Positions 4,354 through 51,383 of a DNA stretch of 61,032 nt are shown here, one piece after another; position 1 is the first letter of the stretch; each line of letters opens with the position of its first letter. Below the pieces are notes generated by a model, which had not been told where the DNA came from, ran no database searches, and saw only the letters and a program-made list of their open reading frames with translations. Origin of the DNA: a virus (Duplodnaviria > Caudoviricetes); IMG/VR virus record IMGVR_UViG_3300042864_000169, positions 1 through 61,032 of that record; one strand, given 5' to 3'. Position numbers and translations under genes: made by a program.

Positions 4354-5778
4354 TCACAGATATTTTGCTAGAACACTAGCGTTGATGTAAGCCGACTTGA
4401 TTGCATCAAGTGCGACACGGCTCTCCTCGGGTTGACGGGAGGTAATGGTTGATTCCCATGCCTCATCAACTGAGAGAATTTCCAATGCCCGAATGAAAGC
4501 GAGGGCAGAGCGGATAGAGGGGGCATCGATCACGTCCCCTGTAATGACCTTGGCACGGCAAGCACTGATGGCATTGACTACGTGTTCAGCCAACATTTTG
4601 TGGCAACCAGTGTGCAAGGTCAGAGCAATAACCTCTTGCTCTTTGCTCAGGTACTTGAACTCAATGACACGGGCAAAGCGGTCAACCAGTGCAGAATTCA
4701 TTTGTTGAACCTTGGCATAGCGTCCTGATGTATCACCATTGGTCAGGGTGTTATCAGCCGAAAAGACCAAGACACCCTCTGCCCTGCGGTGAACAGAACC
4801 CCCGTAGTTGACTGCACTATTGGGTTCTAAGAACCCGTTAAGAACAGCCAACTCACCCGCATCTGCCATGCTGATTTCATCGAGCAAAACCACTGTAGAT
4901 GGGGAGGTGAAAGCCTCCAAGAAAGCACCTTTTTTGAACACTGTCGCACCATTCTCAAGACCGACAGCACCCGCATAATCATCGGCTGTCGTGTACTTGT
5001 GGAAGTTGATACGTGTAAACGAGCGTCCAGTACGGGCACTAAATTGTCTTGCAGTCTCACTTTTCCCAGTGCCTTTAGCCCCACCAAACCACAAATTTTC
5101 TGAAGTCTTTTGTGAGAGGAGCAAGTGCTTCAGAATGTCCTCTTGCCACACAAAGTTGGGATCAACATCGGGGCTGTCAGGGGCATCCCAAATGTCAACC
5201 ATGACAGGGTTGCCCTTTGGGTTGCGAACGTCAACACCGAATACATCGAGCGCAGATTTCCGATCAATGATCTTTGCCTTGGTAGCGTTAGCCACGACAG
5301 CCTCTGCCTTGGCATCTTTGACAGCTTGCGCAAAGGGTTTAAACGCTTTTGCAATGGCACTGGCAACCTCTGCGCTGATCTTGTCCTCATCGAGGTTTGA
5401 CTTAGATGCGACAGAGGCATTGTGGACTGCCACTGACAGATCATTGATCTGTTGCGCTACAGCGTTGATGCTCTGAGTAGCCACTGCCACTTTGTTGATG
5501 GCATCGAGGGCAACCGCCTCGGCACGTACAGCAACCGAGGCGGTAGCATCAAGCTTGGCACTGTCTACACTGCTCACATTGTCAGCGACAGGTGAGCAAT
5601 TTCTGATGTAGTCAAAGTCAGTTAAGCCCTGCTCGATCAGGTCACCTAACCAGTTTAAACGCACCATCTTGTCTTTGTCCTGACGGATATGGTCAGGGGC
5701 TTTGAGGGCTGAAACAGCCCCGTTGATAACGAACTTGTCGAGGGTTGACAAGGTTTTAATTGTGTTCATGGAAGCCAT
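4354..5778 (-). CDS. CobS/MoxR-type AAA+ ATPase with N-terminal coiled-coil extension
   Basis: Walker A GAKGTGKS, Walker B VLLDEI, sensor ADNT, NSALVDRF, SIR. Confidence 0.9.
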   Translation of the reverse strand: MASMNTIKTLSTLDKFVINGAVSALKAPDHIRQDKDKMVRLNWLGDLIEQGLTDFDYIRNCSPVADNVSSVDSAKLDATASVAVRAEAVALDAINKVAVATQSINAVAQQINDLSVAVHNASVASKSNLDEDKISAEVASAIAKAFKPFAQAVKDAKAEAVVANATKAKIIDRKSALDVFGVDVRNPKGNPVMVDIWDAPDSPDVDPNFVWQEDILKHLLLSQKTSENLWFGGAKGTGKSETARQFSARTGRSFTRINFHKYTTADDYAGAVGLENGATVFKKGAFLEAFTSPSTVVLLDEISMADAGELAVLNGFLEPNSAVNYGGSVHRRAEGVLVFSADNTLTNGDTSGRYAKVQQMNSALVDRFARVIEFKYLSKEQEVIALTLHTGCHKMLAEHVVNAISACRAKVITGDVIDAPSIRSALAFIRALEILSVDEAWESTITSRQPEESRVALDAIKSAYINASVLAKYL

Positions 5779-41993: not shown

Positions 41994-44900
41994 ATGGCAC
42001 TACAGACTGCTACCAACCCAAGTACAGGTGAAACAGTTGCATTGGTTGGCAATCAGTGGTTGCCAATTACCAAAACAGCTTCTAACGATCAAGGGCAGAA
42101 AGCCTATCTAGTCAATAACCAATGGTTAGTTGATCAAGAAGAAGAGAAGAAAAAAACCGCTGGTTTCTCCCTCAAAGATCTAGCCTTGTCTTTTGGACAG
42201 GGTGTAGGCGGTGGTACGCAAGCACTTACTGACATAGCTGGTGCTGGTAACGTTGTCTCCAAAGGCTTAACGGGTCTTCAAGAAGCCGCTGGTGAGGCTA
42301 TGTCTCCTGAGCGTCAGGCTGAGATCCGTCGCCGTCAAGAGATTAAGAAGAAGGCTGAAGGCAATACACTAGAAGAGGTTAAAGCTGTTCTCGGTGGCTT
42401 TGCTGAAGCTCCTTTACAGACCCTTGCACAGGGTGCTGGCTCAATAGTTCCAATGGTTCTTGGAACTGCGTTAATGCCTGCCGCCGCTGTACCTGCCGCA
42501 GTTGCTAGATTAACTGCGATGGGTGTATCTGCTGGCACTGCCGCCAAAGTTGCCTCTTCTCTCCCCGCAGCTACTGTCGGTGCAATGATGGGCGTTGGCG
42601 GTCAAAAGGGCCAAGACTACGAGACAGTCAAGCGTGAGTTACTTGAGAAAAAGATACCTGAAGCAGAAGCAGAACGCTTGGCTCAAAAAGCCGCAGAGTA
42701 TTCTTTAGAGAACGTACCACGTCAACTTGCAAGCGGTGCGGCTGGCGCTCTTGCTGGTGGACTAGGCGTTGAATCGCTTGTTGGTCGTATAGGCAAGAAA
42801 CTACCTGAAGTCAAAGGCCCATCACTAAAGTTGCCTGAGCCAACAGTGGCACAAGCTATTGGCAGAAGTACAGCAGCCGAGGCTTTACCTGAAGGTCTTC
42901 AGTCTGCGGTTAGCACTGTCGGTACAAACGTTGCGCTTAACCAAGCTGGCGTTGAGAGAGATCTAACCCAAGGTGTATTGGCTAACGCTATAAATGACGC
43001 ATTAGTCGGTGGCATATTGGGTGCTGGAGCTTCTCCTCTCAAGTTAAAAGAGATGCGTCAGCAGTACGTGCAGGATGAATTTAAAGGCCAGCAGGAATAC
43101 CAGAAGCAACAGCAAGAAGAGATTGCAGCTAACCAAAAGAAGATTAAAGATGAACTGAGCATGACCCAGAACCCACTGGGCATGTTAACTATTGACGATC
43201 TTGGCGCGGATCTATTTAAGGTTGTTCAGCAAAATCGTGCTGATACAGGTAAGCCAGCACTCACTTCTTTTAGTTTAGATGATGTGGTTGATGCGCTGCC
43301 GGGCAAAGATAAAGCAGCAGAGTCTGCAAGTTTAAACGCAATAATCGCAGCCAAGACCGGTTACACCAACGAGGTTTACACGCCTGCGCAAGTTATTGAA
43401 GCTGCTCAAGCCAAGAACGTTGAAACAGGAACTCAAGGTTTCTCTGACTTTCTTTCTAGGACAACTGGTCTCAGTGATCCTGCTCAGATGTCTCAGCCCC
43501 AACTCCATGCGGCTGTCACTGCGCTTGGAAAGCTACCCGGGTTCACATCAACACAGTCGCTGCCAGAAGGTTTAAACGCTACCAACTACACGCCGGATCA
43601 GTTTACTCAAGCCATTGACAGTTTAAACACGCAGATGGATGTGTTGGGTAAAGATGAGCTAACGTTTAAAGAAACAACTAATGCAATAGAGACAGCCACG
43701 GGACTCAAAGGTTCTGCTGTCAATGCTTTGATTAATGATGCCGCTCGCAAGGGTGATGTTGTTACCGAAAACAAGAAAGTTAGTGTTCCCTCACGTACCA
43801 CACCTACTGGATACGGCATTTCTGAAGAGGTTGGCGCTGAACAAGAGCAGGCTACCTCCTACGAAGTTAGACGTGGCGATGAGATTCTGGACGAGCATAA
43901 AACTAAAGAATCTGCTGACCAGCAGGTTGAAGGTTTAAACAAGCTGACCGCAGAAGAGATTAAAAACATTGATGAATCTCTTAAGACGGAAGAAGCCAAG
44001 ATAAGTAAGGCCGAGAAGGAAGTCCAGAGACTTATCCTTGCAGGCAACCGCAGTACTCCAGAATTTAAGACTGCACAGGATGCTTACGAAAAGGCGACTG
44101 ATGAAGCATTCCCCCGTATTGCCGAGTTGAAGGCTAGGAAAGAGTCTTATCAGACTCCTTTAACCGTTGCTCCTATTGGCGTTACAAAAGTTAAGCCAAA
44201 GTCTTATGTAGTACGTAAAGGCGAAGGCATCCAAACCGTCAAGCAGACCCGTGAAGAAGCTGAACAGGCTATCTTTGAGGATCTATCTGACGCAGATCTT
44301 CAAAAGCTATCCAAGAAGCGTTCGCCCGCGTTGCAGAAGCGTGTAAACGCAGAGATCCAGCGTCGTGCTGCTGCGCCAACAAAAGCGGCTCCTGCGACAG
44401 CGGCAACGCCTGAGCAACAAGCTAAGTTAGACAAGCTTAAAAAAGACTTGCCAGCCATGCTGGAGCGGTTTGGCCTGAAGGATGTTGGCCTCAAGATTGT
44501 TGATGCCATTGAGGGTGGTGCTGAAGGTTCTTATGCCGCCAAGGTAATTGAGATTGCTCTGGACGCAGTTAATCCTGTGCAGACCCTGCGCCATGAAGCT
44601 ATTCATGCCTTGAAAGAACTGGGTTTCTTTACCCCCCAACAATGGGCGGCATTAGAGCGTCAGGCTAAGAACGAGTGGGTACAGAAGTATCTTAAGGATA
44701 GAAATTACCGCACAGATGACGGCAAGACTATGAGCCGTTACGAGGCTTATAAGACCCCCGGAATTGCCAGTAAAGATGGCTTGACCGAAGAAGACATTAT
44801 TGAAGAAGCCATTGCCGATGCATTTGGTGACTTTGATGCAACCAAAGCACCTCCGGGAATGCTGACTGCGTTGTTGAACAAGTTGCGTAACTTCTTCTCT

Positions 44901-47900
44901 GCGCTGCGTAGTTATTTAAACGGTCAAGGCTTCCAAACCTACAAGGATGTGTTTGCCAAGATTGAAGCGGGTGAACTTAAGGGTACTACTCCCGCCACTA
45001 CTGGCGAGGCTAAGAAAGCCCTCAAGACCGAGAAGTACGGGATGCTTAACCCCGCCATACAACCCAAGTATGAAAAGGTTTTGAACGACATCATTGATGA
45101 GATGGAAGTAACTCCTGAAGAGCTTGCTTCTACATCTTTGCTTTATCAAACTGGTAAAGCTGGTATTGAGCAGTTTGAAGGCCCAGATATTGGTAGGTTA
45201 CCTGCTGTTGTTCAACATCTACAAGACTTACGTCGTCAGTCGGGTCTGCCTTTACTTGACACAGAAAAGCCGGAAGACCGAAAGACTCTTGCTAGATTGA
45301 TGACAATTGAGGCTATGGCGGCTATCCGTTCTGGTGGCGCTAACCTTGAGTGGTATGACTCGGTCATTAACAAGACGTTGGGTATGGCTGGGCTTAAGTA
45401 CGCAGAACTCAATACAGATCCAAATGCTCGATCAGCCTTCCGGGTTGGAATGGCTATCACCTCTCAAGGTTTAAACGTTGAAGACAATCTTGCGTTTGCC
45501 ATGAAGGTTTATGACTCCTTCAGAATCAACCAGCGTTTCCCAGAAATAGGTCAAGGCGCTGACCAAGGTGCAATGGTAAGCAACTTCAAGTTGGCTAATG
45601 CATTACTTTCCGACATGGGGCCAGACCTGATGCGTCAGTTCCTTGAGACAGAGTTTACTGTTGATGAAATGCGCAGTGCTGGTTTTGACATCAAGGGTGA
45701 GTTAAAAGATGAGAAAGTTCTAGGTTCTTCCGTTTTTGGGCCAAAGATCGGATTTGGCTTCTACTCCAATTTAAACGGTAACTTTGAGCCAACAACAATG
45801 GACATGTGGTTCATGCGAACCATTGGTCGTTTAACTGGCAAGCTAAAGGACTTTGATCCTGAGCTTTACAAAGAACAGCTTGGTAAGTTTAGAAATGCTT
45901 TAAACGTCAAAGGCGACAATGGTGTCTTTGCCAATCAGTTTAATGAGGCAGACGTAGAGGCCGCAAAAACTGATGATGATGCCGCTGAAGCCTTGGCACG
46001 TAAAGTTAAGAGTGCGCATGAGCGTGACTACAAAAACAATCGCGCTGATTACAACAACAAAACAAGAGAGAAATCTAAGTTAGTTGGTGCGGCAGAGTCA
46101 ATGATTAACTCATTGGACAAGCCTAGAGATGCGCCAGCCAGTGGCTCAGAACGCAGAAACTTGCGTGATGTTGTCCGTCAAATGGTGGACATGGTTGAGA
46201 AGAAATACGGTAAGCGAGTACCGCCTGCTTCTTTGCAAGCGGCTATTTGGTATCCTGAACAAGAGTTGTACAAGGCTCTTGGTGTAAGACTGCGTGTAAC
46301 AAGTCAGAGCTACGCAGGAGCAATGGAAAAGATTCTCACGAAGGAGGGATACAATGCAGGACAACTTAGCACAGCAGCAAAATCTGGATCAAGAACAACA
46401 CAACGATTGGCTAATGCGCCAGTCGCCAAAAGAACTCAAGCAACTGGCACACAACCTTACAGAATTGGCCCGCTTGAAGCTCAACAACGGGAAGAGTTCC
46501 TTGAAAAGTACAGAACAAAAGCAGTAATTGAGCAAGAGCGTGAAACGCCACGCCGTAAGAAAGTTGTTTTTGAGGTTGCGCCAGACCCTAATAATGTTGA
46601 ACTAAGCAACCGGTGGAGAAACTTAGATCAAGTTACCCGTTTAAACATCAGTGAAAAAATAGCTCGTAGTATTGTTCGCAAGGCTATGGCTGACTTTGAT
46701 GTGGATGGCTACATCGCTCCGCAAGTTGGTAGTTATATGGATGACACCAACCCATCGTTTGCTTTGTTCCTTAACTCTGGTGACTCTGTAGAGATCTCTA
46801 AATTCATTGGCTACGCCTTGTCGCAAGACAGCATGATGGTTATTTCGCCTAAGCCAGCAAAAGGCTTGGACAAAGTCAGCGCCATCACTGTTGATTTAAA
46901 CACGCAGGATCCAGCCAAGATTGACAAGATCTATCAAGAACTGCGCAAGATTAAGGTTGACGGGGAAACGCCTATTGGTGGTCAGACCACCATGAACGGC
47001 AAGATGATTCTGTTGAATTATTCCAACGTTGACTCTAATGAGTTGGCATCATTGATTGATGATCAACTAAAGGGTGATTACAATATTTCCGTTGGAGATG
47101 TTTATTCCGCATTCCCTGAAAAAGAAAGTTACAACTATGCCAATCCGTCAGATGACCCCAGAGGAGAAAGAGGAACTATTCGGGAACGGAGTCGTTCTCT
47201 TCGGGATGAAGCCACTCGACAACTCCAAGCAGAACTCGGAGAACCCGCCGCCCAAAGAGGAAGAAGAAAGCTAAGTCTTCCGCTTGAAACTGAGGCCGCA
47301 AAGAAGTCTGAGAATCTGCGTGGGATCATTAGTGATGAGACCCTCTACAAAGTCCAAGAGGTTCTCAATACATACACTGAGAAGCCTAAGAATGTAAGCG
47401 TTACGCCTGAGCAACGTGCTAAGGCTGAACAAGCATTACTGCCTTATGTCAACAAGGCAAAAGCAATTAAGCCTAAGTTTGATCAGCAGATCAGAGACAT
47501 CGCCGCTGAGGTTGATGGCGAGGCACGTATCCCCGGACTTAAAGGCTTGGGAAGAGCCGCAGAGAAGCTTATTCTTGAGACTGATGACGGTATGGCTGGT
47601 AACCCCAAAGGTTCCGACATCATGGACTTGCTCCGTGCAACCATTGTCGTTAACAGCGAGAGTCAGATTCAACCTACGCTTGAGTTAATTAAGAAGAAGT
47701 TCCCGCAAGTTCTGCGTGTAAAGGATCGCTTTACAAAACCACAGGACACAGGCTATCGGGACATTTTGATGAACGTCAAGTTACCTAACGGTCTTGCTGT
47801 TGAGATTCAGTTAAACATCCCTGAGATGATCAAGGCTAAGACTAGCGGTCATGTGCTTTATGCAATGAGCCGTAACTTGGTTGATGGTGATCCAAAGAAG

Positions 47901-50900
47901 GCCATGCTTGATGACCTGTCTCGTGATCTTTACAGTCAAGCGTATCGCTTTGCCCAGAATGCCATATCGCCATCATCGGCAGGCTCTGCCTTGGCAAATG
48001 TTTCTGGTGGTACGGGAATATCTGGCTTGGCGGCAAAGACCACTGAGCCATCTTTGAGTTCTAAAACTGGTGTGGCATCTAGTGCCCAAACCTTAGCGCC
48101 TTCAGGAACTTTAAACATACCTGCCTCCTCTAAAGATACAAGTATAAAAGAAAGCAAGAAGAGTCTCAAGACTAATTTTGAAACTGCTGAAGAGGCAGAG
48201 AATGCTGCGTACCGCAAAGCTCCGCCTACAACGCCAGAGTTTAAACGTTTCTTTGGCAGCAGTGTTGTAAAGGAAGAAGGTCGTCCACAGGTGATGTATC
48301 ACGCAAGCATGGAAGATTTCCCTGCGTTCCGTGAGAACAGATCAATCTTTGTTTCTCCTGACCCATATTTTGTAGAAGACTTTATTCAGCGCAGGATCAA
48401 TGAATCAGGCTCATTGCAATACTTGAGCGAAGGAAACCTTAAGACAAAAACTGCAAAGATATACCCTGTGTGGGTTCGTGCGGAGAAGCCGTTTGATTAC
48501 GAAAATCCTAATCATGTACAGCAGGTGGTTGATGATGTTGCGGCAGACTTTACAAGCAAAGAAAAGGGAGGCCGCATTCAATTGGCTACCCATCTTGTTA
48601 GCCGTAAAGACTTGACCGACAAGCTGACAAATGCTCAGTGGGACTATATTGAAGATGGTCGCATTCAAGAGGCTATAAAGAAGCTTGGGTTTGATTCTTT
48701 CTACACACGAGAAGGTGGAGCCAAGAACCTTGCTCTTTACAACTCCAACCAAGTTAAGTCAGTCACAGGCAATACTGGTGAGTTTGGCGAGACTAAAGAC
48801 ATACGCTTTAGTTTAAACAAAGTAAAAGACGAAGTAGACACACTGCCTAACGGTGCGGCTATCAACGCTAGTATCAATCGCCTTGCTCCGGGCCGTGAGC
48901 AAAAAGGATACATCGAGCGTATTCTGGAATTGTTTAAACCACAAAGTGTAGATGCGCTGCGCCAGCAGTTCTTGAATCGTTACAACCAACTTGGTGTGTA
49001 TGACAAGAAAGTTGCCGAACAGATGGGTGGAGCCGCTCTCCTTGCTGACTCAAGCGCAGAATCTGCCGCCCTGATGTCAGACAATGCCGCCGCTATTGCG
49101 ACTATGGCTTGCGGTATTGAGGGTAAAGGTGGCATTCCTGTCTTTGACAAAGGCTACACAACAATCAGTAATGCCAATGGTGAGAAGGGTGTCCTAGAGA
49201 TCCTCATGCCTTTGGCTAAGAGGGGTGACCCACGTATCTACCAAACCTATCAGTTCTGGGCTGGTTCTCTACGGGGTTCCCGTCTGTTAGCTAACGGCAC
49301 AGACCACACCTACACACAGGCTGAGATAGATTACGCCAAAGAACTCTTGGTTAAGTATCCTGAGTTTGAGCAAGTCCAAAAAGATTGGATTAAATACAAC
49401 AATGGCTTGATGAACTACGCAGTAAAAACTGGAGTTCTGTCGCCTGAAAAGGCCGCAGAGTTTATGAAGTACTCTGACTACATTCCTTTCTATCGTCAGA
49501 TAGATGGGGAAAAGACTGTCGGGCCTAGACTGTTCCAAAACATCTCAGGAGTTACTCCTCCCAAGAAACTAAAGGGTCTCAAGGAAGAGCAAGACATTCC
49601 TTTTGCTGACTTCTTAGAAACCATTGTCCGTAACACGCAGTCCATCATCCAATCAGGAATGAAGAACACTGCGGCTCAACGTGCTATTGGTCAGGCCGTC
49701 TTTTTAAAGATGGCTGACAAACGACAAGATGTGTCCTACGCCCCCGGCGTTGTGACTGTCTTGGAGAACGGCAAGCCTGTTTCCTACGACGTAGCCGATC
49801 AGTTGTTCATTGATGCCGTCAAGAGTTTAAACCTACCAGAATTGCCATTCCTAAGTTTCTTTGCTGCGCCAGCAAATCTGCTCCGCAACTTGGTTACCAA
49901 AGATCCCGGCTTTATGATGGCTAACTTGATGCGTGACTCATTGTCTGCGTGGGTTACCAGCGGTGCAAAGATGACACCTATCGCCTCTACCATTGCTAAC
50001 TTTGGCAGGGCTATCGGTGGTACTGACCCTGTCTATCTTGCCTTGCGTAATGCGGGTGTGATTGGTGGTTATGAGTTTGCCGCTGGCGTTGAGAACAGCG
50101 GTGTTATTTTGGGTGAAAGCCTGCGCAGAGCCACAGGAACTCAGACAGGTACAGAGAAGGCTCTCAAGCCGTTTACAAGCCTCTGGCGCGGTCTGGAGAA
50201 GGGTACAGAGGCATCTGATGCCGCTACCCGCATGGCAGTGTACAAAGCTACGCTGGAGAAGACGGGCAACGAGGCAGAAGCTATCTACCGTGCGATGGAA
50301 GTGATGAACTTTAACCGTAAGGGTAACCTTGCCATTGTTCGTATTTTGACTGCGGCTGTGCCATTCCTTAACGCACGTATGCAGGGCTTGGATGTGTTCT
50401 ACCGTGCCGCCTTTGGCAAGATGGCTACGGCAGATGCCGCCGCTATTCAGAAATCTTTCTTTATTCGTGGTGCAACCCTCATGGCTCTTACGTCCATGTA
50501 TTGGTTCTTGACACATGATGATGAGGAATACTTAAACCAAGAGCAAGAGACAAGGGATAACAATTGGTTGTTCCCGTCAGCAGGCATCCGCATCCCAATT
50601 CCTTTTGAGGTGGGTGTCCTGTTTAAAGTCGTGCCTGAACGTATCCTTGAATATTCATTTGGTAGTGACACCGGCAAGGATATGGCTGACTCGTTTAAAC
50701 GTAACTTAATCTCTACGTTTGCGTTTAATCCAATTCCTCAGACTGTTCTGCCTTTTGTTGAGGCTCGTACAAACTACTCGTTTTTCACAATGCGTCCCAT
50801 TGTGGGACAGGGTATGGAGAACGTAGCCAAAGAGTACCAGATGGCTCCTAACACTTCAGAAGCCGCTAAGAAGCTGGGTGGAATTTTGGGTGAGTCCCCA

Positions 50901-51383
50901 ATCATTGTGGATCACATTATGAAGGGCTACACAGGATCGCTTGGTATGTATGCCATTGACCTGATTGACGCAGTCCTGTTCAGTAATGACGCATCACCTA
51001 AGCCTGCAAAACGCTTTGAGCAGATGCCCGTGATCAAACGATTCATTGTGGACAAGGAAGCCAAAGGAACTGTGACCGCTTATTACGAACTGAAGAACTC
51101 TGTAGATGAAGTGGTTCGTACCATTAATCTGTTAGAGCGCACAGGTAAAGTTGAAGACATTGAAGGCTACATGCAAAAGAATGCCGCCATGTTTGCCGCT
51201 CAAGACTACGTCAAGGCTATTGAGTCTGATATGAAGGCTCTGCGTGAGGCGTTGATACAGGTGCGTAGTTCTGACATGTCAGGCGAAGAGAAGAGGGATG
51301 CAATTAGTGAGTTGAACGAAGCGCAGAATCAACTGACATCTCAGATCAGGCTCTTTAAGAAAGAAATCTCTAAGTCACAGTAA
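41994..51383 (+). CDS. giant polyvalent ejection protein: zincin (HEAIH), HhH/DUF7178-like, unknown domain, RelA/SpoT-like synthetase, ART-like, LPD38
   Basis: LRHEAIHAL; WYD..AITSQ..GPKIG..DMWFMR; KGLGRAAEK..DLLRATI..GYRD..EIQL; YHAS..FVSPD..IYPVW..GFDS..NQVKS; MNFNRKG..VPFLNARMQG..IPIPFEVG. Confidence 0.85.
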   Translation: MALQTATNPSTGETVALVGNQWLPITKTASNDQGQKAYLVNNQWLVDQEEEKKKTAGFSLKDLALSFGQGVGGGTQALTDIAGAGNVVSKGLTGLQEAAGEAMSPERQAEIRRRQEIKKKAEGNTLEEVKAVLGGFAEAPLQTLAQGAGSIVPMVLGTALMPAAAVPAAVARLTAMGVSAGTAAKVASSLPAATVGAMMGVGGQKGQDYETVKRELLEKKIPEAEAERLAQKAAEYSLENVPRQLASGAAGALAGGLGVESLVGRIGKKLPEVKGPSLKLPEPTVAQAIGRSTAAEALPEGLQSAVSTVGTNVALNQAGVERDLTQGVLANAINDALVGGILGAGASPLKLKEMRQQYVQDEFKGQQEYQKQQQEEIAANQKKIKDELSMTQNPLGMLTIDDLGADLFKVVQQNRADTGKPALTSFSLDDVVDALPGKDKAAESASLNAIIAAKTGYTNEVYTPAQVIEAAQAKNVETGTQGFSDFLSRTTGLSDPAQMSQPQLHAAVTALGKLPGFTSTQSLPEGLNATNYTPDQFTQAIDSLNTQMDVLGKDELTFKETTNAIETATGLKGSAVNALINDAARKGDVVTENKKVSVPSRTTPTGYGISEEVGAEQEQATSYEVRRGDEILDEHKTKESADQQVEGLNKLTAEEIKNIDESLKTEEAKISKAEKEVQRLILAGNRSTPEFKTAQDAYEKATDEAFPRIAELKARKESYQTPLTVAPIGVTKVKPKSYVVRKGEGIQTVKQTREEAEQAIFEDLSDADLQKLSKKRSPALQKRVNAEIQRRAAAPTKAAPATAATPEQQAKLDKLKKDLPAMLERFGLKDVGLKIVDAIEGGAEGSYAAKVIEIALDAVNPVQTLRHEAIHALKELGFFTPQQWAALERQAKNEWVQKYLKDRNYRTDDGKTMSRYEAYKTPGIASKDGLTEEDIIEEAIADAFGDFDATKAPPGMLTALLNKLRNFFSALRSYLNGQGFQTYKDVFAKIEAGELKGTTPATTGEAKKALKTEKYGMLNPAIQPKYEKVLNDIIDEMEVTPEELASTSLLYQTGKAGIEQFEGPDIGRLPAVVQHLQDLRRQSGLPLLDTEKPEDRKTLARLMTIEAMAAIRSGGANLEWYDSVINKTLGMAGLKYAELNTDPNARSAFRVGMAITSQGLNVEDNLAFAMKVYDSFRINQRFPEIGQGADQGAMVSNFKLANALLSDMGPDLMRQFLETEFTVDEMRSAGFDIKGELKDEKVLGSSVFGPKIGFGFYSNLNGNFEPTTMDMWFMRTIGRLTGKLKDFDPELYKEQLGKFRNALNVKGDNGVFANQFNEADVEAAKTDDDAAEALARKVKSAHERDYKNNRADYNNKTREKSKLVGAAESMINSLDKPRDAPASGSERRNLRDVVRQMVDMVEKKYGKRVPPASLQAAIWYPEQELYKALGVRLRVTSQSYAGAMEKILTKEGYNAGQLSTAAKSGSRTTQRLANAPVAKRTQATGTQPYRIGPLEAQQREEFLEKYRTKAVIEQERETPRRKKVVFEVAPDPNNVELSNRWRNLDQVTRLNISEKIARSIVRKAMADFDVDGYIAPQVGSYMDDTNPSFALFLNSGDSVEISKFIGYALSQDSMMVISPKPAKGLDKVSAITVDLNTQDPAKIDKIYQELRKIKVDGETPIGGQTTMNGKMILLNYSNVDSNELASLIDDQLKGDYNISVGDVYSAFPEKESYNYANPSDDPRGERGTIRERSRSLRDEATRQLQAELGEPAAQRGRRKLSLPLETEAAKKSENLRGIISDETLYKVQEVLNTYTEKPKNVSVTPEQRAKAEQALLPYVNKAKAIKPKFDQQIRDIAAEVDGEARIPGLKGLGRAAEKLILETDDGMAGNPKGSDIMDLLRATIVVNSESQIQPTLELIKKKFPQVLRVKDRFTKPQDTGYRDILMNVKLPNGLAVEIQLNIPEMIKAKTSGHVLYAMSRNLVDGDPKKAMLDDLSRDLYSQAYRFAQNAISPSSAGSALANVSGGTGISGLAAKTTEPSLSSKTGVASSAQTLAPSGTLNIPASSKDTSIKESKKSLKTNFETAEEAENAAYRKAPPTTPEFKRFFGSSVVKEEGRPQVMYHASMEDFPAFRENRSIFVSPDPYFVEDFIQRRINESGSLQYLSEGNLKTKTAKIYPVWVRAEKPFDYENPNHVQQVVDDVAADFTSKEKGGRIQLATHLVSRKDLTDKLTNAQWDYIEDGRIQEAIKKLGFDSFYTREGGAKNLALYNSNQVKSVTGNTGEFGETKDIRFSLNKVKDEVDTLPNGAAINASINRLAPGREQKGYIERILELFKPQSVDALRQQFLNRYNQLGVYDKKVAEQMGGAALLADSSAESAALMSDNAAAIATMACGIEGKGGIPVFDKGYTTISNANGEKGVLEILMPLAKRGDPRIYQTYQFWAGSLRGSRLLANGTDHTYTQAEIDYAKELLVKYPEFEQVQKDWIKYNNGLMNYAVKTGVLSPEKAAEFMKYSDYIPFYRQIDGEKTVGPRLFQNISGVTPPKKLKGLKEEQDIPFADFLETIVRNTQSIIQSGMKNTAAQRAIGQAVFLKMADKRQDVSYAPGVVTVLENGKPVSYDVADQLFIDAVKSLNLPELPFLSFFAAPANLLRNLVTKDPGFMMANLMRDSLSAWVTSGAKMTPIASTIANFGRAIGGTDPVYLALRNAGVIGGYEFAAGVENSGVILGESLRRATGTQTGTEKALKPFTSLWRGLEKGTEASDAATRMAVYKATLEKTGNEAEAIYRAMEVMNFNRKGNLAIVRILTAAVPFLNARMQGLDVFYRAAFGKMATADAAAIQKSFFIRGATLMALTSMYWFLTHDDEEYLNQEQETRDNNWLFPSAGIRIPIPFEVGVLFKVVPERILEYSFGSDTGKDMADSFKRNLISTFAFNPIPQTVLPFVEARTNYSFFTMRPIVGQGMENVAKEYQMAPNTSEAAKKLGGILGESPIIVDHIMKGYTGSLGMYAIDLIDAVLFSNDASPKPAKRFEQMPVIKRFIVDKEAKGTVTAYYELKNSVDEVVRTINLLERTGKVEDIEGYMQKNAAMFAAQDYVKAIESDMKALREALIQVRSSDMSGEEKRDAISELNEAQNQLTSQIRLFKKEISKSQ
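46354..46527 (+). CDS. nested +1-frame 57-aa ORF inside the giant gene (candidate antitoxin)
   Basis: AAGGAGG 6 nt before ATG; lies in the linker right after the HhH-like domain. Confidence 0.55.
   Translation: MQDNLAQQQNLDQEQHNDWLMRQSPKELKQLAHNLTELARLKLNNGKSSLKSTEQKQ
47137..47274 (+). CDS. nested +1-frame 45-aa acidic ORF (candidate antitoxin)
   Basis: MPIRQMTPEEKEELFGNGVVLFGMKP...; host frame becomes an Arg-rich linker; RBS weak. Confidence 0.45.
   Translation: MPIRQMTPEEKEELFGNGVVLFGMKPLDNSKQNSENPPPKEEEES
47936..48118 (-). CDS. nested antisense 60-aa ORF after the RelA/SpoT domain (candidate antitoxin)
   Basis: GAGGAGG RBS, own promoter; host frame is a Ser/Gly-rich linker over this span. 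Confidence 0.7.
   Translation of the reverse strand: MFKVPEGAKVWALDATPVLELKDGSVVFAAKPDIPVPPETFAKAEPADDGDMAFWAKRYA
48141..48169 (-). promoter_or_regulatory. antisense internal promoter TTGAGA-N17-TATACT
   Basis: 5/6 match at both boxes, 17-bp spacer, about 10 nt upstream of the GAGGAGG RBS. Confidence 0.7.

Follow-up and report, generated by a model that had tools for sequence, protein, structure and literature searches.

The DNA analysed here, positions 1 to 61,032 of the IMG/VR virus record IMGVR_UViG_3300042864_000169 (Duplodnaviria; Caudoviricetes; hereafter the window, 61,032 nucleotides in full), carries a giant gene (41994–51383, + strand) whose frame is uninterrupted along all 3129 amino acids. 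Within this gene three consecutive modules are each followed, at the C-terminal boundary of the module, by a small ORF in another frame. A preliminary description had read this arrangement as toxin and immunity cassettes stacked inside a virion protein. The question raised by the locus is therefore twofold: whether the small ORFs are genes at all and, if so, whether their products neutralise the modules that precede them.

The giant gene and its three small frames

The giant gene is located 3' of the virion structural and tail-spike genes, the terminase and the portal. Pfam recognises in its product a RelA_SpoT match, an ART-PolyVal ADP-ribosyltransferase module (amino acids 2094–2264; 48273–48785) and, within the conserved C-terminal region, an LPD38 domain (amino acids 2843–3014; 50520–51035). 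Pfam gave no match to a zincin peptidase domain in the giant protein; only the motif HEAIH is present in its sequence.

Module X (45054–46353; amino acids ~1021–1453 of the giant protein), defined by BLAST and an AF2 model, is all-helical, and its tail is overprinted by orfA (46354–46527, + strand, +1 frame, 57 aa from an ATG). Module Y (46530–47136; amino acids ~1513–1714), defined in the same way, consists of two ferredoxin-like halves and has its tail overprinted by orfB (47137–47274, + strand, +1 frame, 45 aa from ATG to stop), which is enclosed by longer frames starting at GTG 47074 and ATG 47098. Module Z (47319–47935) is, by Pfam and sequence, a Tas1-like nucleotidyl (pyrophospho)transferase domain of the RelA/SpoT type; its tail is overprinted by orfC, which runs on the opposite strand from ATG 48118 to the stop at 47936 (60 aa) within a frame starting at TTG 48217. 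All three ORFs were found as first described.

Judged from this single genome, the three ORFs are within chance. The giant gene contains 24 alternative-frame ORFs of at least 45 aa starting with ATG (17.0 ± 3.0 in 500 synonymous shuffles), and the probability of an open second frame, given the host protein, is 0.22 for orfA, 0.59 for orfB and 0.14 for orfC. The claim that the host frame turns low-complexity over these spans held for composition, the hydrophobic fraction of the host peptide being 0.19 (orfA), 0.13 (orfB) and 0.19 (orfC) as compared with ~0.29 for the gene median and 0.17–0.19 for the 5th percentile, but for sequence entropy only the orfC span lies below the 5th percentile. An alternative-frame ORF over such a linker is not evidence by itself, because a hydrophilic linker composition leaves frames open: the linkers are without T at codon position 2 and without Tyr, His and Gln codons, so that the wobble-matched antisense frame remains open alongside the +1 frame. 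By the same kind of reasoning, the antisense translation of a linker rich in S, T, G and A would look protein-like from the structure of the code alone.

Functionless chance ORFs are nonetheless highly improbable, as this explanation is contradicted by all comparative tests, made on a set of ~90 related loci. In a 53%-identical relative (L003) all four control alternative-frame ORFs of the giant gene (58–70 aa) are broken, whereas orfA, orfB and orfC are intact in relatives where the controls break. Host-frame identities of 20–60% among the related loci argue against an alignment artefact produced by a single, recently spread sequence. On comparison with these relatives, the three ORFs are far above chance. 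A conserved overprinted ORF was also looked for on the tail of the ART-PolyVal module and none was found, the antisense ORF at 48737–48913 being broken in three relatives (L001, L002 and L003).

Codon-level evidence for dual coding

At orfA, variability is highest at the third position of the host codons throughout the upstream stretch, which ends exactly at 46354 (nucleotide alignment of 40 non-redundant sequences), from where onward the wobble position of the +1 frame is the most variable; the diversity at the host third position is 0.60 before this point and 0.33 after it (p=2e-11). Of 58 loci, 52 have a recognisable orfA, with ATG as the start in 51 and GTG in one, and its ATG is shifted by one codon in one clade; the X-bearing locus L025 is an exception, without an orfA-like peptide. 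A Shine-Dalgarno sequence, AAGGAGG (46341–46347), is positioned 6 nt 5' of the ATG and contains the sole + strand AGGAGG of the 9.4-kb gene. Similar sites precede orfA in 41 of 42 non-redundant loci, as compared with 12% of 3273 control ATGs.

The same pattern is seen at orfB, where the dominance of the host third position ends exactly at 47137 (nucleotide alignment of 21 non-redundant sequences) and its diversity drops from 0.60 to 0.31 exactly from the ATG (p=9e-12). The ATG is kept, and a Shine-Dalgarno-like site is present in 15 of 20 loci (12% of control ATGs). The host frame is open across the entire orfA in 42/42 and across the entire orfB in 20/20 non-redundant loci, and therefore both frames are kept. 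Ungapped identity at orfB is 0.518 in the host frame and 0.487 in the +1 frame, which in these alignments indicates selection that is shared between the frames rather than shifted. Five Y-bearing loci have a different +1 ORF at the place of orfB, and a free-standing orfB relative persists where stops cut the host frame. A scan of 139 fifteen-codon bins (codons 706–2790, 56 non-redundant loci) demonstrated loss of third-position dominance in six bins, all six of them within orfA or orfB, which are the only two regions with such a collapse.

The wobble positions of orfC coincide with those of the host, and the mixed-clade whole-gene scan based on BLAST alignments gave no suppression over orfC (S4A2 0.27–0.32 vs S4A4 0.24–0.36). 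In the best-sampled clade (15 non-redundant sequences), transversion polymorphism was observed at 0/14 wobble sites that are four-fold in the host and two-fold in orfC; 17/26 sites with four-fold degeneracy in both frames carried it (p=3.8e-5), and inside the catalytic domain of Z the same class gave 19/32 (p=1.6e-4). Codon positions 1 and 2 moreover exchange their ranks of conservation over orfC, taking on the antisense pattern (MWU p=4e-4), and do so in the window's own clade as well; there, the wobble test (six sequences; 4/20 vs 8/19 sites) gave a trend only. The synonymous-site constraint that had been proposed as a check was found over orfA, orfB and, in the best-sampled clade, orfC.

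Signals for separate expression accompany orfC. Its Shine-Dalgarno sequence AGGAGG (48124–48129, − strand) is found 5 nt 5' of the ATG, behind a putative sigma-70-like promoter (48141–48169, − strand; TTGAGA at 48169–48164, a 17-nt spacer and TATACT at 48146–48141) with 10/12 consensus matches, the best site within 46000–49000. Among 23 loci, a −10-like hexamer 7–40 nt 5' of the ATG is present in 20 (1.1% of control ATGs), a Shine-Dalgarno-like site in 21 (6.4% of 1589 control ATGs) and both together in 18 (0.0% of the 1589). Metatranscriptome contigs, which are without strand or level information, span the three-ORF region.

The frames might instead be conserved for frameshifted, truncated isoforms with alternative tails, or as RNA or DNA elements such as recombination linkers and pause sites. 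The conserved stretches do lie exactly at the junctions where recombination shuffles the modules, the internal Shine-Dalgarno-like sequences could serve as pause sites, and the host frame is likewise kept open. However, the variability follows the codon pattern of the other frame and is not a flat nucleotide conservation, and the switch begins at a conserved, Shine-Dalgarno-preceded ATG, which has been relocated by one codon in one clade. Furthermore, orfC has its own −10 box, Shine-Dalgarno sequence and ATG on the opposite strand, the suppression of transversions over it is antisense-specific, and relatives of both orfB and orfC survive as free-standing genes, all of which makes such an explanation improbable. 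Overprinting of the three ORFs is, by contrast, well supported by these sequence comparisons.

Modules, cassettes and the predicted complex of Z with the orfC product

In relatives, modules X (common to ~50 loci by BLAST), Y and Z occur in varying order and as separate ORFs, and the small ORF stays at the tail of each, so the small ORFs are conserved with their modules across shuffled architectures. The co-occurrence of domain and small ORF that the preliminary description proposed to check did not extend to the free-standing relatives of orfC. A search of 401 bacterial genomes found these in four, and none of the four has a RelA/SpoT-like neighbour within ~1.5 kb (BLAST against the giant protein); in two of them a phage integrase is encoded directly upstream. 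The orfC family comprises 113 clusters (50% identity) matching at E≤1e-3, its members being mostly 57–90 aa long with end-to-end matches.

Module Z scores 29.9 bits against the Pfam RelA_SpoT cut-off of 27, and among solved structures its sequence is closest to Tas1 (6ox6_A, E=3.1e-13), a (p)ppApp-synthetase toxin. Invariant in 18 Z sequences are K61, R65, K69, D89, R92, R119, K121, R123, Y132, D134, E148, Q150 and H164. The prediction of a complex between Z and the orfC product, suggested at the outset, gave a score of 0.77 (runs 0.72, 0.80 and 0.77) as compared with 0.02 for the best of three controls; this score is a confidence of the model, not a measurement. Of 80 solved complexes 58 attain the score mark, as do 2 of 110 mismatched pairs, counts that are only rough since custom alignments were used. 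The partner has a pLDDT of 92, at least 79% of the contacts are common to the runs, and the interface includes six invariant Z residues (K69, D89, R119, K121, R123 and N138). The orfC product is thus predicted to dock on the invariant basic face of Z; an immunity or antitoxin role for orfC is plausible.

The AF2 models of X and Y have pLDDT values of 87.6 and 88.6, respectively. Foldseek gave no match for X at E≤1e-3; a VIA wide search returned HhH-GPD glycosylase-type folds in 19 of the top 24 rows (Z 5.5–7.8, weak), and Y weakly resembles RND porter subdomains (Z 8.6–9.2) and phage SAM lyase (Z 7.5 and 6.9), all of these matches falling under the reliability level of the tool. Fold matching assigned neither module to a recognised toxin family, and searches with orfA and orfB gave no relatives of known function. 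Some orfA relatives (P0067 and P0081) carry extra C-terminal domains.

The three ORFs may, as a possible though less probable reading, be real expressed overlapping genes that do not neutralise the adjacent module but act as assembly or packaging helpers, as regulators of proteolytic processing, or as independent anti-host or anti-defence peptides housed in tolerant linkers. The evidence from selection and start signals is silent on function; the weak folds of X and Y, whose toxicity we infer, the lack of detectable functional relatives of orfA and orfB, the extra domains on orfA relatives and the free-standing orfC relatives without a RelA/SpoT neighbour would all suit such roles. On the other hand, each ORF is strictly inherited along with a single, particular module however the architecture is shuffled, docking of the orfC product is predicted with high specificity and at residues that are invariant in its own module, and Z is of a toxin type known, from the cited part of PMC11782079, to require a protein neutraliser. 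A polyvalent protein with overprinted cognate neutralisers at three of its modules is thus the favoured reading, with a probability of roughly 0.55. The stacking of toxin and immunity first proposed is partly supported, by the conserved dual coding, by the cassettes and, at Z and orfC, by the toxin type and the predicted binding; an effector role of X and Y, with their weak fold matches, is putative.

Known systems and the proposed mechanism

Small genes embedded out of frame are represented by lambda Rz1 in Rz and Bacillus comS in the giant srfA, each a short +1 ORF wholly inside a larger gene with an internal ribosome-binding site. Rz1 is a spanin subunit and comS a competence regulator; unlike the ORFs described here with their putative role, neither is known to be repeated at successive module boundaries or to be linked to neutralisation of the host protein. 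The immunity genes of pore-forming colicins are oriented opposite to the colicin gene and have their own constitutive promoter, and immunity is therefore independent of toxin expression. The antisense orfC with its own predicted promoter is similar in this respect, but colicin immunity genes are intergenic and are not known to share codons with the toxin, whereas orfC overlaps its module.

Among toxSAS with protein neutralisers, the cited part of PMC11782079 covers Tas1-Tis1 (Tas1 structure 6OX6), FaRel2-ATfaRel2 and CapRel, in which a small structured protein occludes the substrate site of a toxic RelA/SpoT synthetase. Z is nearest to Tas1, and the orfC product is predicted to lie over invariant basic Z residues. 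In contrast to the neighbouring genes of those systems, orfC is antisense on the C-terminal linker of Z itself with its own predicted promoter, and Z, of putative activity and substrate, lies inside a phage protein of 3129 aa. No sequence likeness was found between orfC and the solved chains of the neutralisers Tis1, ATfaRel2 and CapRel.

With ART-PolyVal, RelA/SpoT and LPD38 in one giant multi-module protein among late and virion genes, the locus resembles the polyvalent proteins known from phages and from conjugative elements, RelA/SpoT and LPD38 being specific to the phage type according to the cited part of Iyer et al. 2017 (PMC5512222); overlapping or embedded ORFs are absent from the main text of that paper, where 'overlap' occurs 0 times. 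In polymorphic toxins and MuF proteins, as set out in the cited part of Zhang et al. 2012 (PMC3482391), a toxin domain and a small immunity gene likewise recombine as a cassette, and that paper also reports RelA/SpoT toxin domains joined to phage MuF. In these systems, however, the toxin is C-terminal with a separate downstream immunity gene, whereas here three cassettes are stacked internally and the small gene shares the nucleotides of the linker.

The giant protein is presumably a chain of effector modules, thought to be packaged and injected with the phage DNA, in which the DNA for the hydrophilic linkers after three consecutive modules would double as code for small proteins, the gene of each forming a single heritable cassette together with its module. 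These proteins would most likely be cognate neutralisers, that is immunity proteins or antitoxins; for orfA with X and orfB with Y we infer this role, as we do module toxicity, neutralisation, packaging and injection throughout. Both orfA and orfB would be translated from the late mRNA of the giant gene via their internal Shine-Dalgarno sites, and orfC would be expressed with a short leader from its own sigma-70-type promoter on the opposite strand. The neutralisers would bind the folded modules in the producing cell, where the orfC product, predicted to cover the face of Z that carries invariant basic and acidic residues, may block a nucleotide-consuming activity until the giant protein exits the cell. 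When the giant protein is threaded from the virion, a non-covalently bound inhibitor would stay behind. The orfC product would also act in any cell carrying its gene, and the orfC relatives standing free beside prophage integrases fit a role in protection against superinfection.

The giant gene and its modules

The window spans an entire virus record (61 kb, 98% complete), and its plus strand carries terminase, portal, virion structural and tail-spike genes upstream of the giant gene (41994-51383, +), which closes this block as its largest gene and is a single open frame of 3129 codons. Pfam recognised ART-PolyVal at aa 2094-2264 of the giant protein (46-54 bits) and LPD38 at aa 2843-3014 (122-125 bits), both above cut-off, and RelA_SpoT (PF04607) when 47274-48179 was scanned alone (29.9 bits vs the cut-off of 27). 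A HEAIH motif at about aa 868-872 marks a candidate zincin-like MPTase, and the stretch 44391-45053 is without any Pfam family. The accessible text of Iyer et al. (2017; PMC5512222) confines RelA/SpoT and LPD38 to phage-type polyvalent proteins. Several unrelated effector-type domains are joined here in one polypeptide encoded among late and virion genes, and the domain set, as judged from sequence, is that of a phage-type polyvalent protein. From its family membership, the giant protein is presumably carried inside the virion and enters the cell along with the DNA. Elsewhere in the window, the 474-aa product of 4354-5778 (-) hits a PHROG family whose annotation is porphyrin biosynthesis (auxiliary metabolic gene) and, more weakly, AAA-ATPase-type proteins. 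Contigs from 14 DNA runs on lake or freshwater samples contain the region 46000-48400 or close relatives of it (at least 95% of sampled words), and six metatranscriptome runs (wastewater, marine and lake) contain parts of it.

Of the three consecutive modules X (45054-46353), Y (46530-47136) and Z (47319-47935), the last is the best characterised. Among solved proteins, Z is closest in sequence to Tas1 (6ox6_A, E=3.1e-13), with E-values around 1e-3 for the GTP pyrophosphokinases that come next; 18 sequences share invariant basic and acidic residues, and the domain has the RelA/SpoT synthetase fold and motifs of toxSAS/Tas1-like enzymes. Tas1 is described in the accessible text of PMC11782079 as a (p)ppApp-synthesising interbacterial toxin that is neutralised by Tis1. 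Module X gave a confident model (pLDDT 87.6) for which Foldseek returned no match at E<=1e-3; in another structure search, 19 of the 24 top rows were HhH-GPD DNA glycosylases or queuine-salvage enzymes, at Z-scores of 5.5-7.8 that may reflect merely a common helical arrangement. Module Y (pLDDT 88.6) consists of two ferredoxin-like halves, with best structural Z-scores of 8.6-9.2 for RND-pump porter subdomains and of 7.5 and 6.9 for phage SAM lyases. PDB sequence searches with X and Y gave nothing significant and, the fold matches being weak, neither is claimed here as a toxin.

Two dual-coding ORFs in the +1 frame

Each module is followed by a small ORF lying within the open host frame, as the preliminary description had stated and as we confirmed: orfA (46354-46527, +1 frame, 57 aa) on the tail of X, orfB (47137-47274, +1 frame, 45 aa) on that of Y, and orfC (48118-47936, antisense, 60 aa) on that of Z. 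In the single sequence these ORFs are not evidence by themselves. Within the giant gene, 24 alternative-frame ORFs of at least 45 aa start with ATG, vs 17.0 +/- 3.0 in 500 synonymous shuffles, as do 11 of at least 60 aa vs 8.4 +/- 2.3; equally long ones lie inside domains of the same span (e.g. 47446-47688 and 47842-48051). Resampling of synonymous codons left the frames open with probabilities of 0.22 (orfA), 0.59 (orfB) and 0.14 (orfC). The hydrophobic fraction of the host peptide over the three ORFs is 0.13-0.19 (median 0.29), and such linkers leave alternative frames open by composition, since a +1 stop requires T at host codon position 2 and a stop in the wobble-matched antisense frame requires a host Tyr, His or Gln codon. 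The antisense reading of a linker rich in S/T/G/A/K is composed of D/E/V/P/A/F/L, and so looks protein-like through the structure of the genetic code alone. Four control alternative-frame ORFs of 58-70 aa (43607-43819, 44300-44509 and 48737-48913, all -, and 43735-43938, +) are all interrupted in the related locus L003, and each of the three on the minus strand has also lost its start or acquired stops in L001 or L002. A further antisense ATG ORF of 192 aa (49938-50516, -) lies within the conserved C-terminal block and slightly exceeds the 95th percentile (182 aa) of the longest alternative-frame ORF in shuffles; near it, codons 2600-2660 show lower transversion diversity at sites four-fold in the host and two-fold in antisense, a signal seen in only about 8 sequences and in a different antisense frame from that of the ORF.

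What separates orfA and orfB from such chance openings is the pattern of substitution. Two scans, of viral contigs and of metagenome contigs, each using module X rather than the small ORFs as its anchor, yielded 58 related loci, and nucleotide alignments were built without reference to frame (40 non-redundant sequences for orfA, 21 for orfB). Host position 3 is the most variable in every upstream 30-nt bin, and this ends exactly at 46354 and at 47137: host third-position diversity falls from 0.60 to 0.33 over orfA (p=2e-11) and from 0.60 to 0.31 over orfB (p=9e-12). Over orfA, host positions 1 and 2 relax at the same time, from 0.28 to 0.47 and from 0.21 to 0.41, and the +1 frame takes on the usual variability order of a coding frame, with variation visible in the alignment at the +1-frame wobble of a conserved AQQPNLDQ motif; over orfB the host and +1 frames are about equally constrained. 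Among 139 bins of 15 codons each (codons 706-2790, 56 non-redundant loci), six lose third-position dominance, and all six fall inside 46359-46494 or 47124-47258. The constraint on synonymous sites by which the preliminary description proposed to check its overprinted genes is seen in these two linkers as the collapse of variability at the host third position. The host frame is stop-free across the small ORF in all non-redundant loci (42/42 for orfA, 20/20 for orfB), and with the alternative frame under selection both readings are thus maintained, purifying selection acting in both frames over the shared nucleotides. A comparison of ungapped identities was not decisive: for orfA the alternative frame scored 0.317 vs 0.282 for the host and was higher in 486 of 861 pairs, a comparison confounded by a one-codon register shift, and for orfB it scored 0.487 vs 0.518 and was higher in 45 of 190 pairs. 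On these data, orfA and orfB are very probably real dual-coding genes.

Their start signals were recurrent. orfA was recognisable in 52 of the 58 loci, starting with ATG in 51 and with GTG in L049 and ending 47-118, mostly 57-63, codons after the start; in the clade of L008-L011, L019 and L038 the ATG lies one codon earlier and the length is kept. Among the six loci without an orfA match, the sequence of L047 is cut off ahead of the ORF, the +1 reading of L025 is unrelated, only weak matches come from L054 and L057, L056 has a divergent ATG-started ORF, and L050 was left out of the inspection. orfB was found in 26 loci, complete in 25 and running off the end in L010; in further distinct viral loci it was embedded in 9/9 cases, in host frames of 1170-2043 aa, and five loci with a distant Y (about 31% identity) have a different ATG-started +1 ORF in its place. 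A Shine-Dalgarno (SD)-like site stands 4-16 nt upstream of orfA in 41/42 and of orfB in 15/20 non-redundant loci, vs 12% of control ATGs. That of orfA in the window, AAGGAGG, contains the only plus-strand AGGAGG of the giant gene; an AGGAGG at 43855 (-) was dismissed, the nearest ATG being 35 nt off and too distant for it to serve. A promoter-like TTGATG-17-TACAAT (47056-47084, +) lies 53 nt before orfB, and a -10-like hexamer occurs within 60 nt upstream of orfB in 13/20 loci vs 3.5% of control ATGs; this hexamer may arise incidentally from conservation of the host residues DY(N/E)I.

A word-indexed profile search found 37 clusters at 90% identity for each of orfA and orfB and 41 for orfC, all unnamed or 'hypothetical' and without a Pfam domain. 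Pfam, PHROGs and PADLOC gave nothing above cut-off for the three peptides (best, HTH_WhiA at 17.5 vs 27 bits for orfA), the ESM Atlas no usable match for orfA or orfC, and PDB sequence searches with the three family profiles nothing significant. Among the database relatives, P0050 and P0065 carry a divergent orfB-like peptide fused in one frame to an orfA-like peptide, and P0067 and P0081 an orfA with a C-terminal extension of about 40-65 aa resembling a folded domain; from these forms, the orfA reading may start a longer downstream gene in some phages.

Antisense orfC and its predicted link to module Z

Codon positions 1, 2 and 3 of orfC correspond to host positions 2, 1 and 3, and since the wobble positions coincide, periodicity cannot separate the two readings. 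Sites were instead classed by their degeneracy in each frame, using 15 non-redundant sequences of the clade typified by L030. Transversion polymorphism was seen at 0/14 sites that are four-fold in the host and two-fold in orfC, vs 17/26 sites four-fold in both frames (Fisher p=3.8e-5) and 19/32 host-four-fold/antisense-two-fold sites within the catalytic domain of Z, in which no antisense gene is expected (p=1.6e-4); in that domain this class behaves like the four-fold class (30/41). Host position 2 is more conserved than position 1 in the catalytic domain and the order is reversed over orfC (MWU p=4e-4), a reversal also visible in the six sequences of the window's own clade. Host two-fold sites are still constrained over orfC (3/9 and 0/12 polymorphic). 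The wobble test in the window's own clade gave a trend only (4/20 vs 8/19 sites), and a whole-gene scan of wobble classes on mixed-clade BLAST alignments showed no suppression over orfC, which counts against selection on it; that scan is weak here because of the few sequences and the cross-clade alignment of a low-complexity stretch.

orfC also carries putative expression signals of its own. In the window, a promoter-like TTGAGA-17-TATACT (48169-48141, -) is the best such site in 46000-49000, a region in which the number of promoter-like sites equals chance expectation, and is followed by an SD AGGAGG (48129-48124, -), with the ATG next, at 48118. Of 23 loci drawn from four clades, 20 have a -10-like hexamer located 7-40 nt upstream of the ATG, 21 have an SD-like site and 18 have both; the corresponding values for 1589 other same-strand ATGs were 1.1%, 6.4% and 0.0%. 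TG-preceded variants take its place in the three loci that lack a strict hexamer, and in L031 and L040 the short distance from the -10 box to the ATG would allow a leaderless message. An ATG-started orfC stands at the tail of Z in the window and in 15/15 other loci, spanning four clades and several module orders. One further copy of Z and orfC (L033:5582-6061) is interrupted by stops on both strands, with the near-identical L034 and L035 intact, and is either a broken copy or an assembly error. Metatranscriptome contigs (four sets from four studies) aligned to 46000-48400 cover all three ORFs, giving no strand, start or level and possibly reflecting DNA carry-over; two RNA-library contigs, each from a different study, start at 46329 and 46342, immediately upstream of orfA, and were not counted as evidence. 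Taken together, orfC is likely, at a strength just short of that for the two plus-strand ORFs, to be a real dual-coding gene.

Complex prediction was carried out with alignments of 18 rows for Z (191 aa) and of 50 rows used for orfC (60 aa). The predicted Z-orfC complex scored 0.77 (runs 0.72, 0.80 and 0.77) vs 0.02 for the best of three controls; of 80 solved complexes 58 attain the mark, as do 2 of 110 mismatched pairs, counts that hold only roughly as our own alignments were used. The runs agreed in at least 79% of their contacts, and the partner had a pLDDT of 92. The predicted interface on Z (residues 69, 72-76, 78-79, 86, 88-89, 118-123 and 138) includes six invariant columns, K69, D89, R119, K121, R123 and N138. 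This model supports binding and does not show it. orfC has no sequence likeness to the known toxSAS neutralisers, whether Tis1-like or pZFD/ATfaRel2-like, or to any other solved chain: when all PDB chains were searched with a profile built from 53 orfC-family sequences, the 4 matches at E<=10 included neither Tis1 nor ATfaRel2 nor the CapRel pZFD. Lacking likeness to solved chains, the pair is less likely, though still able, to owe its score to a memorised structure.

The orfC family extends well beyond the giant gene. An exhaustive profile search found 113 clusters at 50% identity (E<=1e-3), most of them of 57-90 aa with end-to-end matches, sharing the pattern FPxGxxF...PV...PDG...SExEF; Pfam assigned no family to 50 members, and PADLOC none to orfC. 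A ~65-aa orfC unit is tandemly duplicated within proteins of 140-160 aa in L089/L092 (G358:C86:31546-31953), P0120 and P0123. Free-standing homologues, which the preliminary description had suggested seeking, do exist. Members of the orfC family occur in 4 of 401 genomes of one bacterial order, and in L088 and L091 the gene lies directly downstream of a phage integrase; by BLAST, no neighbour of the free-standing orfC relatives resembles the giant protein. The orfB relative P0112 (on 50 contigs) is free-standing in a MAG contig of Rubrivivax, where it precedes a terminase small-subunit-like gene and the former host frame is cut to 52 codons between stops. These relatives show that small ORFs of this kind can exist without the host frame.

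Inheritance with modules and proposed function

The small ORFs travel with their modules. Subsequent scans contributed another 13 loci for orfB and 14 belonging to a single orfC clade, the latter queried with one orfC sequence; a phage DNA search with 45800-48600 found no match, tblastn against phage records only partial module matches (coverage at most 48%), and a profile search of genome contigs with a 700-aa alignment no relative. BLAST of the relatives' long frames delimited modules at aa ~1020-1503 (X), ~1513-1758 (Y), ~1776-2062 (Z) and ~2078-2278 (ART), followed by the C-terminal block. Their order varies, Z preceding X in L014-L017 and L042, and Y preceding X in L028, L033 and L039; in L029-L032, L036, L041 and L043-L045 X terminates an 841-aa frame, the modules being on separate ORFs. 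Each small gene is linked to its module and co-inherited with it, as in toxin-antitoxin pairs, and the co-occurrence that the preliminary description proposed to test holds at the frequencies recorded for orfA, orfB and orfC. L011, L012, L038 and L049 carry two or three tandem ART-PolyVal-like modules, the window one, and in the window's clade the ART tail showed no conserved overprinted ORF.

Dual coding, own start signals and cassette-like inheritance are shown by these data. As to function, neutralisation of the adjacent module is the best-supported candidate, with direct computational support for orfC and Z only. The toxin and immunity roles proposed in the preliminary description stand in part: dual coding, cassette inheritance and the predicted Z-orfC binding speak for them, and X and Y are not claimed as toxins. 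On the complex model, that orfC neutralises Z is somewhat better than an even bet; that orfA and orfB neutralise X and Y is rather doubtful. Under this scheme, orfA and orfB would be translated from the late mRNA that encodes the giant protein, and orfC would be transcribed from a host-type promoter, with which it could be made before late gene expression and also in lysogens. Speculatively, a non-covalent inhibitor would be stripped off as the giant protein threads out of the capsid.

In toxin-immunity systems, the toxin is usually limited to the C-terminal end of its carrier, with the immunity gene behind it. The broader reading is that polyvalent proteins carry, for each injected module, a neutraliser overprinted on the next linker, forming cassettes of module and hidden antidote that can be stacked internally and shuffled without parting poison and antidote, and that the orfC family is a new class of anti-Tas1-like immunity proteins, widespread and serving also as orphan immunity genes beside prophage integrases against superinfecting phages; we give this joint reading a probability of about 0.4. 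Each element is known by itself, be it overlapping genes, toxin-immunity cassettes or toxSAS antitoxins, and their combined architecture appears new: the openly accessible literature covered, PMC5512222, PMC11782079 and PMC3482391 among it, gives no account of ORFs overprinted on polyvalent-protein linkers and describes no antisense-embedded toxSAS neutraliser.

The findings add three protein families that gene callers skip by design, amounting to about 115 clusters at 90% identity, all unnamed. The frame-specific tests are applicable to other giant phage and plasmid genes, in which similar hidden genes may be common. orfC is a testable candidate inhibitor of (p)ppApp-type alarmone toxins and, if expressed from prophages, the antisense gene is a candidate superinfection-immunity determinant. 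An immunity gene written over a linker would remove the C-terminal limit on toxins, and overprinted immunity would explain how a chain of dangerous enzymes can be made without premature killing of the host.
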